A stretch of DNA of 64,000 nt from NCBI RefSeq assembly GCF_030013595.1, contig NZ_CP122768.1. One strand, written 5' to 3'. A program made the position numbers. The stretch is from Escherichia coli (GTDB taxonomy: Bacteria; Pseudomonadota; Gammaproteobacteria; Enterobacterales; Enterobacteriaceae). Position 1 is the first letter of the stretch; each line of letters opens with the position of its first letter. Below are positions 24,001-27,000 of this stretch, piece by piece.

Positions 24001-27000
24001 CCTGAAGAGCAGGAGCCGTGCTGTCCGCCCGACGGACCACTAAACAAAGCGATTAATTATATCCTGAACCGGCGCGATGAACTGAGCTGCTTCCTGAGTG
24101 ACGGAGCCGTGCCCCTGGACAACAATATCTGCGAGCGTGCTATCCGCCCGGTGGTCATGGGGCGGAAAGCATGGTTATTCGCCGGTTCACTGATGGCCGG
24201 GAACCGCGCGGCACAGATAATGAGCCTTCTGGAAACGGCAAAACGTAATGGTCTGGAGCCGCATGCCTGGCTGACAGACGTTCTGACGCGTCTACCGGAG
24301 TGGCCGGAAGACCGACTGGAAGAGTTGCTGCCCCTTGAGGGATTTACCTTCTCCGGATGAGTGATACCTGCCATCAGGTGTTCGTGCAGCGGGCCATAAC
24401 CCGCAGTCGGGAGTTGAACGCCTGACGACAGGAAATGAGCCAGAGCAGCGACCACGCGGGCTGACAGTGAGTCAGAACCTGAATCAGCCCGGAGCCATTC
24501 CCGGGGCTGTACTTCATCACCTGCCATCAGTACCCGTGTCAGTACTTCGCGACCTGACGCAATTACCCGACTCAGTTCTTCAGAACCCGCCTCCGATACC
24601 AGCCTGGCGGTCGCCCCTGTGCAACAAAATAAATCAACCATCGTCAGACGGTGATCAATCGTATGCGCTGCCAGTGGCTCGCCTGAAAAATGCGTCAATA
24701 TGAGTTCGCCGGAACAATACCTCAGTTCTTCAGAACCCGCCTCCGATACCAGCCTGGCGGTCGCCCCGGCGCAACAGAATAAATCAACCATCGTCAGACT
24801 GCGATCATTCGTATGCATCGCTGATGATGCGCCCGAAAAACGCGTCAATATGAGTTCGCCGGAATATTACTGACGACACGGTTTGTAGTTACGTTCCTTC
24901 GGTGAGTGAGTACCTGTGCGTCAGGGTAACGCAATCAGTTCAGGTTTAGCGGGGTGTCAAGTCGGTTTGGCTAACCGACCGCAGAATTAACTGTACCTTT
25001 AAAGGTCGCCCCCGATATATCTGCCTGTCAGACATATCGCCGATTCGGTATCTCACTACATAAAACTCCTTAAAAAACAATGCGATTCTGTTGGTACGAA
25101 GCTTTCAGTAAGTCAGTCCGGAGAAGCGCCAGTACGATACAGAATGAGGTTGAAAAAAACGTTCACGTCTGGTCACTTCTTCAAATGTTAAAAAACATCT
25201 CGTAAAGAGCCAGTTTATGCGGGTTCGTTGAGTAGACGTGCGAGCGTCACTTTGTCAGCTTTAACGCTGACGAAAGTGACGCCCGCACAGCTTCAAACTC
25301 CACATGCACACGCAAGCGACCAAATTTCAAATGGTCTTATGCCGTGCGCACAGTCATAAGAAGCGCATGCGGAAAGTCAGAAAATATCTTAAGACGCAGA
25401 TTTTAAAGGCGTTTTTATGCCAGTCTGCCGGGAATACACAGTAGTCCGGTTGTCCGGAAGCACCACGGTAATCCGAAGGAAAAATCAACGTACCTCAATC
25501 ACCGTAGTGATATCCGTTCCCAGAGGCTAAACGGATGTACCACCATAAAGGCATCCTCTTTCAGGCTACGAGGATATTGCAATCACCCGAAGGCGTTTCT
25601 CTCAGATTGCTGAAACATTGGCTGGCAGTCACCCGAAGGCGTCCCTCTCAGACTGCTGGAACATTGGCTGGTCGCAAAAGCGACAGTTAATGCAAATACA
25701 GGTTAACAAAAAGGGAAATCTGCCGTCAACCCAACCATATGAACATGTTGATTTCATTATGAATGTGATGTTCTAATATAAATTAATCAGTAACTTCATA
25801 AAAAGAATATAAGAAACAGATAATGCATGTATTTACACACATATCAGCACAATGATAGATTACCACCCCAGAAACACGATAAAGGTATAATTATGGAATT
25901 TTCCGTTATTTTTTTCTGGGTTATCACTGGTCTTATTACCATCTTATTCTTAAAATCAATAATAACCGATCTAATAAAAAACCTAAACAAAACAGACATA
26001 GCGTTATATATATTGGCATTTTTATCAGCCGGATATACATTCCAGTATATTTACAATGACAATATATTTTCAGAACTATGGGGAGTTGGCCTGTTTGTTA
26101 CTCTGATAGTACTGAATATAGTATTTAATCTCTTTTTTAGACTCTTATTCATTCTCTCGAAAATGATATTAATGTCACGACATATAAGAAAGATGCAAAA
26201 AAAACTAAAACAGACGTCTGTGCCTGATTTTATTTATTATTCAATAGAAAAACACAACAAATATCCCATATATGTATTACACATGCCATCAAACAATATA
26301 ATTGAAATAGGCTACAATATAATAAACACCGATCTGGTCATTGGCGAAAAAATTCATTTCAGGACACTAAGCAATCGTTCTTTATATTTTAACCTCACCC
26401 AACCCCCATTAATCGCGACAATAAAAGATGATGTGTTTTGCACTCTTCATGATTACTATAACCACAATAATGAAACGAAATCCACTATTGACAATTACAT
26501 ATCAAAAATAAAGGATAATCATAATACCCCATGGTTATTAAACAACGAAAATGTTCAGGAATAAAAAAAGAGACAATTCCCGAGATAAAACAAAAGAGCA
26601 TAAACATATGAACCGGAAATTCTATTTCAAAAATATCCTGTGGGGAATGTGCCCCATTATAATATCCATATTGCATCTGATATATGACACACCAACAGAA
26701 GGGTAATGACTCCAACTTACTGATAGTGTTTTATGTTCAGATAATGCCCGATGACCTTGTCATGCAGCTCCACCGATTTTGAGAACGACAGTGACTTCCG
26801 TCCCAGCCTTGCCAGATGTTGTCTCAGATTCAGGTTATGCCGCTCAATGCGCTGAGTATAACGCTTGCTGATAACGTGCAGCTTTCCCTTCAGGCGTGAT
26901 TCATACAGCGGCCAGCCATCCGTCATCCATACCACGACCTCAAAGGCCGACAGCAGGCTCAGAAGACGCTCCAGTGTGGCCAGAGTGCGTTCACCGAAGA

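Follow-up and report, generated by a model that had tools for sequence, protein, structure and literature searches.

A non-coding interval in the Escherichia coli O157:H7 tellurite/urease island is probably the junction of an IS66-family tail and an orphaned STAXI-EFASI module

Background

STAXI (RF01728) and EFASI (RF02957; 'Enterobacteriaceae, Frequently Around STAXI and Integrases') are RNA motifs that have been catalogued since 2010 and 2017, respectively. A STAXI motif consists of a hairpin or pseudoknot unit in two or more copies, usually three, many of them with UUCG loops; EFASI is described as following a STAXI copy on the same strand at several hundred bp and as preceding an integrase gene. 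STAXI adjoins genes for Ssb, topoisomerase and anti-restriction proteins (Weinberg et al. 2010, PMC2864571), and was later detected by strand-specific RNA-seq in Pectobacterium atrosepticum, where features of ~228 nt were assigned to it and it was entered as the 3' UTR of topB (PMC4710047). Both motifs have been detected by RT-qPCR in a STEC strain (PMC12370729), with primers that match the DNA described here exactly.

Here we report on a non-coding interval in a 64,000-nt stretch of E. coli DNA (RefSeq assembly GCF_030013595.1, contig NZ_CP122768.1), referred to below as the window. This stretch corresponds to the tellurite/urease island of E. coli O157:H7. The locus matches O157:H7 chromosomes at 100% identity, and the RefSeq annotation of the same locus puts the interval between the ter and ure clusters. 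It was found at ≥80% coverage in 572 of 5426 complete E. coli genomes. The island is heavily rearranged, with nested IS elements and gene fragments in the RefSeq annotation.

Results and discussion

The interval and its parts

The original prediction took the interval as one object. We find two unrelated parts instead, split at 24870/24871, and the interval as a whole is very probably the junction of two mobile-element remnants, the tail of an IS66-family element and an orphaned non-coding module. The left part (24361-24870, plus strand) would be the non-coding tail and right end of the insertion sequence, and the right part (24871-25729, minus strand) a ~0.85-kb non-coding module from a conjugative element, here orphaned. 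The motifs of the right part, STAXI and EFASI, are already catalogued and its identity is already known; as a junction of an IS66 tail with catalogued motifs, the interval is mostly ordinary. A search for a phage origin gave no match among 50,697 phage records. The features are as follows.

23623-24360, plus strand: C-terminal part of tnpC of the IS66-family element ('element A'), from the RefSeq annotation of the identical O157 locus and Pfam
24361-24870, plus strand: untranslated 3' tail of the element up to its right terminal inverted repeat (...GGAATATTAC), from the match to plasmid copies
24571-24720, plus strand: inner 150-bp unit, ending ...GGAACAATAC, the putative diverged right end of the resident IS copy (TRF)
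24721-24870, plus strand: outer 150-bp unit, with terminal inverted repeat GTAATATTCCGGCGAACTCATATTGAC (reverse complement), the putative right-end fragment of a second, canonical IS copy
24871-24904, minus strand: remnant of a 3' closing helix (CCCTGACGC...GTGTCGTCA), clipped by the IS (alignment)
24905-25058, minus strand: EFASI RNA motif, holding the hairpins near 24960 and 25010 (cmscan)
25224-25382, minus strand: middle domain, made up of a long hairpin with a GACCATTTGAAATTTGGTC cap and, after it, a very stable hairpin (RNAalifold, covariance model)
25498-25536, minus strand: two small hairpins, ATCCGTTTAGCCTCTGGGAACGGAT and ATCACTACGGTGAT, directly after STAXI, conserved with compensatory changes
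25534-25685, minus strand: STAXI RNA motif, a 5' hairpin and three repeated hairpin units (cmscan)
25700-25729, minus strand: predicted sigma-70-type promoter, with -35 TTGACG (25729-25724), an 18-nt spacer ending TGT and -10 TAACCT (25705-25700)

No open reading frame of 60 or more amino acids had been seen to start between 24848 and 25827, and the longest within 24873-25826, in any frame, has 52 aa. Left of 24873 lie ORFs of 263 aa (24057-24848, minus strand), 78 aa (24467-24703, plus strand) and 57 aa (24700-24873, plus strand), the first two without a Pfam match. We treat the 263-aa ORF and a 107-aa "hypothetical protein" in the IS tail, which likewise has no Pfam match, as spurious, because they are antisense to tnpC and inside the IS. 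Within the module, an ORF of 36-44 codons through EFASI was rejected as a small protein gene, being unconserved and with start frames that vary between loci, and the 56-codon ORF annotated as a protein gene on a 3.1-kb plasmid that carries the module is not conserved among loci either. Indels in the module are not multiples of three and candidate start frames vary by locus, which argues that it is non-coding.

The IS66-family element and its tandem right ends

Element A is annotated in the identical RefSeq locus with tnpA, tnpB and a tnpC split by an IS682-like insertion (21109-23641) whose inverted repeats were detected. The C-terminal part of tnpC matches Pfam DDE_Tnp_IS66 (E 4e-48) and IS66_C, and the tail that follows, upstream of the 150-bp units, is ~93% identical to the tail of a plasmid copy. 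Comparison with other copies places the terminus of the element inside the interval: about 400 plasmid matches end at window position 24870/24871, and a 2772-bp copy in pRHB23-C14_3 retains both inverted repeats and is flanked by an 8-bp target duplication, GTTATGTG. From the target duplications of the plasmid copy and the common stop point of the plasmid matches we take 24870 as the true right end. The proposal that the interval is the undefined right end of element A thus applies to its left third and fails for the remainder. In the window the right inverted repeat (GTAATATTCC...) occurs twice, the left tip is diverged (GTGTCGTTAC...), and no target duplication surrounds the IS, the flanks GCATCCTG and TGACGACA not matching each other.

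The 150-bp tandem duplication noticed at 24573-24872 is real. TRF reports it at 24571-24864 (period 150, 2.0 copies, 88% matches, score 469), and the units lie in register at 24571-24720 and 24721-24870, ~2 nt to the left of the earlier coordinates. In alignments the inner unit differs from plasmid IS ends at ~18 of 150 positions (~12%); the outer unit shows no difference from the ends of two plasmid IS copies at any aligned position. Because of this 100% identity to plasmid-borne copies, the two units look like the scar of one IS copy inserting into, or recombining with, another. The tandem units have no function of their own.

The STAXI-EFASI module

A covariance-model search for RNA families returned Rfam's STAXI and EFASI, both on the minus strand. 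STAXI scores 134.3 bits against a gathering score of 40.5 (E 7e-30) over model positions 1-153 of 153; the cmscan alignment holds three units, two of them with CUUCGG loops, and each unit bears a CTG that is invariant in the alignment of homologues. The 46-bp tandem repeat reported at 25583-25671 proved genuine (TRF 25579-25671, period 46, 2.0 copies, 89% matches, score 151) and corresponds to STAXI units 1-2. The two tandem repeats, which had been taken as comparable, are therefore different things, the 46-bp repeat being internal STAXI architecture and the 150-bp repeat apparently an IS-end scar. The genes beside STAXI in the window are the IS66 element and a hypothetical gene, with no Ssb, topoisomerase, anti-restriction or XerDC-type integrase neighbour; genes typical of its neighbourhood are present at the homologous loci L006, L007, L008 and L009.

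EFASI starts (25058) 475 nt downstream of the end of STAXI (25534) on the same strand; in seven other loci the gap is 427-526 nt. The match covers the full-length model (positions 1-133) at 48.9 bits, below the gathering score of 51.2 (E 1e-7), while copies of the same subtype in intact E. coli ICEs reach 52.3 and 53.2 bits, and the fold has z = -3.6 (200 shuffles). Beyond EFASI a closing helix (CTCTGGCGC...GCGCCAGAG) covaries in an alignment of 19 loci, in which the O157 row ends ...GTCGTCA, adjoining the IS end. Relative to intact copies, O157 is without the last ~3 nt of the module, a 21-codon uORF and a recombinase-like gene. In intact relatives a PF12835/PF12834 protein starts ~100-130 nt downstream of EFASI; in the window no integrase gene follows, and the IS66 end is 35 nt away. 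The IS thus appears to have cut the module ~35 nt after EFASI and deleted the downstream genes.

The middle domain had no Rfam match at E ≤ 1 in cmscan. Our own covariance model, R1, scores 162.8 bits at the window's copy and finds at least 33 loci at ≥39 bits. Double changes affect 27 of 43 pairs, 87.8% of cells are paired as against 28-43% when partners are slid, and the fold has z = -9.0 (200 shuffles). On the minus strand G-U pairs outnumber A-C mismatches by 51 to 21, and the CGCC-UUCG-GGUG loops with their G-U pair are invariant. The very stable hairpin (25240-25286) has invariant arms, GGCGTCACTT/AAGTGACGC, although in the 33-locus set the search pattern itself required the 10-bp arms to be invariant. 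Outside Enterobacterales the palindrome pattern gave multi-copy matches in Acidimicrobiia, Bdellovibrionales and other metagenome-assembled genomes; these were set aside as unrelated, since the one checked, L046, has neither STAXI nor EFASI.

All four hairpins that had been singled out fall within these domains. Folded on the minus strand against 200 shuffles, those near 24960 (24961-24979; -10.4 kcal/mol, z = -2.3) and 25010 (25013-25039; -14.5 kcal/mol, z = -4.2) are confirmed, as is the one placed at 25247-25290, which is the hairpin at 25240-25286 (core 25244-25282; -35.4 kcal/mol, z = -7.7). The hairpin near 25515 (25512-25536) is thermodynamically unexceptional (-9.1 kcal/mol, z = -1.1) but is upheld by compensatory changes in homologues: the small hairpins show such changes in seven homologues and are conserved in most rows of a further alignment. 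The structures in the interval are real and far beyond chance.

Upstream of STAXI, a TTGAC/A-N17/18-TAnnnT pattern lies at a fixed distance in 13-14 of 14 aligned loci from 10 genera. Homology among the 14 loci starts at the -35 element, and the DNA upstream of it is unrelated. The O157 -10 (TAACCT) is weak and was missed by a simple promoter scan. No conserved promoter precedes EFASI in 19 loci, and no intrinsic terminator is evident in the module, nor, in O157, after STAXI. The alignments show a module that runs from a predicted sigma-70 promoter through STAXI, two hairpins, the 160-nt covarying middle domain and EFASI to the closing helix.

The module in other mobile elements

Intact carriers are MPF_G-type ICEs and plasmids of Enterobacterales, in which the module has mating-pore genes or cargo on one side and, on the other, an operon led by a short uORF and a tyrosine-recombinase-like gene, with ArdC, DUF1281 and DNA-methylase genes after them. 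Searches of solved structures and NCBIfam gave nothing useful on the recombinase-like protein. The order STAXI, 427-526 nt, EFASI, recombinase-like gene is found in E. coli ICEs and in Pantoea and Serratia plasmids, and STAXI-hairpin-EFASI also in Pectobacterium, Dickeya, Photorhabdus, Edwardsiella and Cedecea. Although the sequence turns over between loci, the distance from STAXI through EFASI is kept at 729-862 nt. Plasmids of 3.1 kb (NZ_CP059920) and 5.3 kb likewise carry the entire module, with no gene downstream of it. The sole gene of the former encodes a Rep_1 rolling-circle initiator, and MOB-suite types it 'mobilizable' despite the lack of a relaxase; its 5.3-kb sister is typed non-mobilizable.

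The module's two halves, left and right, have reassorted among loci, and their phylogenies disagree. Examined crossovers fall inside the ~160-nt middle domain, in the 5' arm for O157 and in the 3' arm for Edwardsiella (L053). A change-point scan of 342 locus pairs placed breakpoints throughout the middle domain, between -105 and +45 nt relative to the 5' arm (~150 nt), and many others at the module's left boundary.

What the module may do

The suggestion of one or more noncoding RNAs is supported for 24871-25729 by the two Rfam motifs on the minus strand, the promoter kept across 10 genera and the covarying middle domain, as well as by the published STAXI and EFASI transcripts (PMC4710047, PMC12370729). 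The most likely reading of these comparisons is that the module is transcribed, whether as a structured RNA or as a leader. Its own promoter would drive synthesis of a highly structured RNA that, in intact elements, may act on the downstream operon as its 5' leader or as a regulatory RNA; the IS in O157 would have taken the regulated genes away, so that any transcript there would be an orphan. The small plasmids without a downstream gene fit a purely cis-acting leader poorly, and the reassortment of halves suggests that these may be separable functional units. Tentatively, we entertain the possibility that STAXI, the middle domain and EFASI are domains of a single, portable, promoter-driven structured RNA gene of ~0.85 kb whose middle domain is a hinge at which halves are exchanged. 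Its carriers include ICEs, large plasmids of several transfer types and, with the module complete, 3-5-kb plasmids without an associated gene. If so, a copy of a large non-coding RNA of mobile elements survives almost intact in the O157 island, and the role of the single RNA could be establishment, anti-defence or recombinase control.

STAXI and EFASI might instead be two separate trans-acting sRNAs, with spacer and an unrelated element between them. Rfam types both as 'Gene; sRNA' (quoted in PMC12370729), the Pectobacterium features for STAXI measure only ~228 nt, one ICE copy (L007, 8225-8241) has a terminator-like hairpin after STAXI, and both the gene-less small-plasmid modules and the reassorting halves would suit independent units. 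We nevertheless find this doubtful: EFASI has no conserved upstream promoter in 19 loci, STAXI is not followed by a terminator in O157, and the span from one to the other is held at 729-862 nt around a middle domain that is itself conserved and covarying. A reading of the module as folded single-stranded DNA, raised by Weinberg et al. (PMC2864571) from the Ssb, topoisomerase and anti-restriction neighbours of STAXI, would make it an initiation or priming signal or a single-strand promoter, like Frpo/ssi, acting on conjugative entry into the recipient or during rolling-circle replication. STAXI does recur in a gene array with ArdC and a DNA methylase, and the full module sits on the 3.1-kb plasmid beside Rep_1. 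The CTG invariant in each STAXI unit is the trinucleotide recognised by DnaG primase. Against this, a conserved sigma-70 promoter of the conventional double-stranded type lies immediately upstream, no -35/-10 hexamers lie within the hairpins, and RNA is favoured by the UUCG tetraloops, the invariant G-U pairs and the excess of G-U pairs over A-C mismatches (51 to 21). The module also occurs on a plasmid with a probable Rep_3 theta-type replicon, and in the ICE of E. coli JNEC-KY180 it lies ~30 kb from the relaxase gene. On the rolling-circle plasmid its sense strand is opposite to rep; the nick usually falls on the rep-sense strand, in which case the displaced strand would carry the weaker complement, although the plasmid has no CTTGATA nick site from which the displaced strand could be fixed. 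We regard action as single-stranded DNA as unlikely.

It is improbable, too, that the core is a DNA site, with the palindrome GGCGTCACTT...AAGTGACGC serving as an oriT or as the recombination site of the tyrosine-recombinase-like protein and carried by small plasmids for resolution, integration or mobilisation. In favour are its 10-bp arms, invariant around a variable interior (with the arms fixed by the search pattern in the 33-locus set), the recombinase-like gene 0.4-0.6 kb downstream in intact copies, the conflicting half phylogenies with examined crossovers in the middle domain, and the 'mobilizable' call for the relaxase-less 3.1-kb plasmid. The crossovers, however, do not sit at one position but cover ~150 nt (-105 to +45), a pattern also expected from homologous exchange within the best-conserved stretch, and the 27 of 43 covarying pairs, which include the long hairpin upstream of the palindrome, together with the G-U pairs point to intra-strand folding. 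An oriT at the palindrome was rejected, the relaxase gene being ~30 kb off in an intact ICE. The 5.3-kb sister plasmid is typed non-mobilizable. Non-functional debris, whether a decayed replication origin or a pseudogenised region, is a most improbable account of the interval. The rearranged surroundings, with nested IS elements and gene fragments, would suit it, but for 24871-25729 it is already contradicted by full-length matches to two covariance models and by promoter, spacing and covariation conserved over at least 10 genera, and it is fair only for the duplicated IS tail. Nor does the earlier idea of a decayed origin survive: there are no iterons, only the two TRF arrays, candidate ORFs are unconserved, and the sequence is a conserved module.

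Conclusions and comparison with known systems

For annotation, the right end of the IS66-family element is now fixed at 24870, and the two tandem repeats and the four hairpins are accounted for. The 0.86 kb beyond the IS end is very probably a relic of a conjugative element and not an origin or pseudogene. To the catalogued motifs the comparisons add one conserved promoter, a constant motif spacing, a third covarying domain outside Rfam, the occurrence of the whole unit on tiny plasmids and recombination at the middle domain, and so define an object to delete, map and express. These additions refine known motifs incrementally and do not amount to a new kind of system.

With the IS66 family (e.g., ISEc8 and the IS682 of the same island) element A shares the gene order tnpA-tnpB-tnpC, the DDE_Tnp_IS66 transposase, the GTAA... 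terminal inverted repeat and, in its plasmid copy, 8-bp target duplications. The window copy departs from typical members in being interrupted by IS682, with a diverged left tip, no target duplications and two tandem right ends. Frpo and ssi act as single-strand promoters or priming signals in leading regions of the F-like and IncI types, next to oriT and on the transferred strand; an Frpo-type promoter is a long imperfect hairpin with -35 and -10 hexamers in its stem. Like them, the module is a repeated, structured non-coding element among ssb and anti-restriction genes of a conjugative element, but its structured region has no promoter-like hexamer pair on either strand and a duplex promoter lies upstream in unstructured DNA; membership in this class is not supported.

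The window's EFASI agrees with the described motif in strand, in its position downstream of STAXI and in its full-length match, and intact relatives carry the integrase-like gene ~100 nt downstream that Rfam describes. It differs in belonging to an E. coli lineage with long hairpin insertions, in its missing integrase-like gene and in an extra covarying closing helix beyond the model, clipped by the IS. STAXI conforms in its high full-length score, its three tandem hairpin units with CUUCGG loops and its host order, Enterobacterales; at homologous loci it adjoins integrase-like and anti-restriction genes, with a second STAXI later in the same array, whereas in the window that neighbourhood is lost and replaced by the IS66 element and an AT-rich hypothetical gene. 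Beyond STAXI as described, a conserved sigma-70 promoter precedes the motif, which forms the opening domain of a larger conserved module.

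An insertion-sequence tail and an orphaned module

All features listed in the original prediction for interval 24400-25830 are now identified. The interval comprises the tail of an IS66-family element with a duplicated end (24361-24870, plus strand) and an orphaned non-coding module (24871-25729, minus strand), in which a middle domain lies between STAXI and EFASI and which is a remnant of an MPF_G-type conjugative element. The original description was correct save for offsets of a few bases: the longest ORF between 24873 and 25826 is 52 aa, TRF reports two copies each of the 150-bp tandem duplication (24571-24864, 88% matches) and the 46-bp tandem repeat (25579-25671, 89% matches), and three of the four strong hairpins lie far beyond shuffled sequence (z = -2.3, -4.2 and -7.7 at 24960, 25010 and 25247-25290). 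The fourth, near 25515, is conserved, but its fold is not exceptional (z = -1.1). The suggestion that the interval is the right end of the insertion element holds for the left third, ending at 24870, but not for the remainder, where RNA motifs lie; for the right two-thirds the noncoding-RNA option is supported, a covariance search against Rfam giving STAXI and EFASI on the minus strand.

Chromosomes of E. coli O157:H7 and of other EHEC match the 1.47 kb around the interval at 100% identity, and of 5426 complete E. coli genomes 572 carry the interval at a coverage of at least 80%. The RefSeq annotation of strain TR01 places the site in the tellurite-resistance/urease island, in the order iha, ter genes, IS66-family nest, interval, hypothetical gene, hok, ure genes. 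The hypothetical gene gave no match in a Pfam/NCBIfam search. In the DNA that separates terW from the IS66-family element's left end, five (T)TTGGCATC-like motif copies (19340-19452), about 20-25 nt apart with GATCA/CGATCA interleaved, look like iterons or binding sites.

Features of the window (Rfam matches are above the gathering score unless scores are given)
2257-2330, minus: Esr41 sRNA (Rfam)
25058-24905, minus: EFASI (Rfam, 48.9 bits against a gathering score of 51.2; E 1e-7; full-length match)
25685-25534, minus: STAXI (Rfam, 134.3 bits against a gathering score of 40.5)
25729-25724 and 25705-25700, minus: module promoter, -35 TTGACG and -10 TAACCT preceded by TGT (conserved pattern, fourteen loci)
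25893-26564, plus: AT-rich hypothetical gene WP_000397132.1, 223 aa, divergent from the module
33179-33457, plus: 5' ureB sRNA (Rfam)
55144-55278, plus: RtT (Rfam)
55381-55408, minus: single, isolated CRISPR-DR4 repeat-like match (Rfam)

The duplicated end

The ORF ending at 24360 encodes the C-terminal part of an IS66 transposase (Pfam DDE_Tnp_IS66 and IS66_C), the gene being interrupted by an IS682-like element (21109-23641). The AfaR small RNA is matched in part, below threshold, at 23563-23653 (plus strand; 36.6 bits where the gathering score is 100; E 1e-3), across the right end of the IS682-like element (23641) and the first part of the remaining tnpC (from 23623).

About 400 plasmids match the window only at 24400-24871; their matches run on into an IS66-family transposase gene and hold one 150-bp unit each, not two. 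The 2772-bp copy in pRHB23-C14_3 lies within a hok gene with an 8-bp duplication, GTTATGTG, on both sides, and this target duplication fixes the terminal sequence as ...GGAATATTAC, of which the last base in the window is 24870. Comparison with other copies has thus set the terminus that the original prediction left undefined. The outer unit (24721-24870) shows no difference from two plasmid IS ends at any aligned position, the inner unit (24571-24720) differs from them at about 18, and the tail just upstream has about 93% identity to the plasmid copy. We infer that a diverged resident copy stops at 24720 and that the sequence after it is the final 150 bp of another, canonical copy, a scar that could arise if one IS copy inserted into another and recombination followed. 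The flanks of the window's element, GCATCCTG and TGACGACA, show no matching target duplication, and its left tip is diverged, both of which fit a later rearrangement. In CP061244.1 the matching span, judged by its coordinates, is about 152 bp shorter, as a single unit would predict.

Architecture of the module

The 46-bp repeat represents units 1 and 2 of three repeated STAXI hairpins, and the hairpins near 24960 and 25010 are stems of EFASI in the Rfam alignments. The arrangement is the one given by Rfam, which calls EFASI "Frequently Around STAXI and Integrases" and puts it downstream of STAXI by several hundred bp (text cited in PMC12370729); across twelve loci, STAXI start to EFASI end spans 729-862 nt. 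About 20 nt upstream of the first STAXI hairpin, TTGAC(A/G)-N17/18-TAnnnT is common to fourteen loci in ten genera, while the DNA 5' of the -35 is unrelated between them; the window's own -10 is weak and fails a simple scan. No comparable conserved promoter was found upstream of EFASI, a purine-rich AAGGAG-like element being conserved there instead. This element lies 10-20 nt from the EFASI 5' end in 19 loci (window ~25062-25075, minus strand), and a conserved single-stranded ACCUCAAC of EFASI is anti-Shine-Dalgarno-like; the two together hint at translational control.

The best-conserved stretch of the module is the middle domain (25382-25224), which folds into a long hairpin capped by GRCCATTTGAAATTTGGYC and a very stable hairpin, the palindrome, with arms GGCGTCACTT/AAGTGACGC (25240-25286; fold energy of the domain z = -9.0). 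Rfam gives no match for it, even at E <= 1. Among the matches listed in a genome scan for the arms are Photorhabdus, Xenorhabdus, Pectobacterium, Dickeya, Erwinia, Brenneria, Edwardsiella, Cedecea, Citrobacter, Yersinia, Serratia and others, often with several per genome. In the loci that were checked, STAXI and EFASI flank the hairpin, except in L017, where it is ahead of STAXI; in six loci checked, EFASI alone was above the Rfam gathering score. A covariance model of the domain finds at least 33 loci at 39 bits or more. In an alignment of the 33 listed, which was fitted to the model and in which the search itself forces the outer arms to be invariant, two-sided changes occur in 27 of 43 pairs and 87.8% of cells are paired, against 28-43% with partners slid; none of 500 shuffles reaches the observed values. 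G-U pairs outnumber A-C mismatches by 51 to 21 (30 to 17 outside seed sequences), so the folded strand is that of STAXI and EFASI.

Xenorhabdus ehlersii (L024-L033) and X. mauleonii (L070-L077) carry 8-10 palindrome copies per genome, which would reflect either many islands per genome or mobility of the unit itself. The copies examined have a shortened middle domain, with EFASI in the three loci scanned with Rfam and, at L029, a 305-aa recombinase-like ORF downstream. The pattern GGCGTCACTT-N16-28-AAGTGACGC also occurs in many copies per genome in metagenome-assembled genomes of Acidimicrobiia, Bdellovibrionales and Fermentibacteria (L042-L048, L079-L092, L101-L105, L117-L126); neither STAXI nor EFASI was found at the one such locus checked (L046), and these copies are probably an unrelated palindromic repeat family.

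Intact copies in conjugative elements

Divergent full-length relatives lose similarity at the IS junction (query position 957/958) and share a conserved order. Two chromosomal ICEs of E. coli (L007 and L008) have TIGR03756/TIGR03757-type ICE genes and a TraG-like gene ahead of the module. After it come a 300-aa recombinase-like gene (PF12835/PF12834 "integrase domain"), a small gene, another STAXI copy and hypothetical genes; these are followed by DUF1281 and N6-methylase genes, joined in strain 48 by ArdC. This order recurs in an MPF_G plasmid of Pantoea and in a Serratia plasmid. In E. coli JNEC-KY180 UvrD, a TraI-domain protein, an integrase and tRNA-Phe form the end of the element, about 30 kb beyond the module. 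In seven other loci (L012, L013, L014, L024, L032, L037, L061) Rfam matches to C4 antisense RNA, isrK and c4-a1b1 lie 0.3-1.5 kb past EFASI; such matches in many non-E. coli loci suggest a P1-like immunity/antirepressor cassette as a frequent neighbour.

Directly after EFASI a covarying helix, CTCTGGCGC...GCGCCAGAG, closes the region (alignment of the module's 3' end across 19 loci). Between it and the recombinase-like gene the E. coli ICEs have a conserved 21-codon uORF (MNFAVVFTAQQQNSSAVRTAV / MSFSVVFTAQQKNSSAERTAV) with its own Shine-Dalgarno sequence (L007 ~8885-8950; same place in L008), which is lost in O157. The O157 IS end falls within the 3' strand of the closing helix; only a few nt of the module are therefore lost, together with all that it preceded.

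RNA or single-stranded DNA

Most likely, the module's own promoter would drive synthesis of a structured RNA which, in intact elements, would lead into an operon of recombinase-like and anti-restriction genes. Its role as a cis-leader we hold only tentatively, because small plasmids carry the module alone. A 3.1-kb plasmid whose sole gene is a Rep_1 rolling-circle initiator has it complete from promoter to closing helix, and a 5.3-kb plasmid, its replicon probably Rep_3, has a copy at 90% identity, neither with a downstream gene. Such carriage also leaves room for the alternative that the module may function as single-stranded DNA. Weinberg et al. weighed this idea as well, the UUCG loops leading them to prefer RNA (PMC2864571). 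In the rolling-circle plasmid rep and the module have opposite sense strands, and a search of that plasmid for a CTTGATA nick site found none. RNA is favoured by the conserved duplex promoter, an invariant G-U pair in CGCC-UUCG-GGUG and the G-U excess in the middle domain, as well as by STAXI transcripts in strand-specific RNA-seq of Pectobacterium (PMC4710047) and in APEC (PMC11599210) and RT-qPCR detection in STEC (PMC12370729). On balance we consider it probable that the module acts as RNA.

Mosaicism and relation to known motifs

The left half of the O157 module (STAXI to palindrome) is nearest to the small plasmids and the right half to the E. coli ICEs, and the two ICEs themselves share the right half (~90% identity) but not the left. 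Of 342 locus pairs put through a change-point scan, 22 were strongly discordant, with breaks at the module's left boundary and, besides those, seven at -105 to +45 nt from the palindrome 5' arm. Crossovers read from alignments fall in the 5' arm in O157, in the 3' arm in Edwardsiella (L053) and at the middle domain's 5' edge in other cases. The pattern is compatible with two readings, site-specific exchange at the palindrome or homologous exchange of the ordinary kind in the best-conserved stretch.

Primers published for STAXI and EFASI (PMC12370729) match the window exactly, so that its own sequence has already been handled under these names in STEC. The locus is already known as STAXI and EFASI, and our additions are modest: a promoter, a third domain, the module as a unit, its carriage on tiny plasmids and a recombination hinge.
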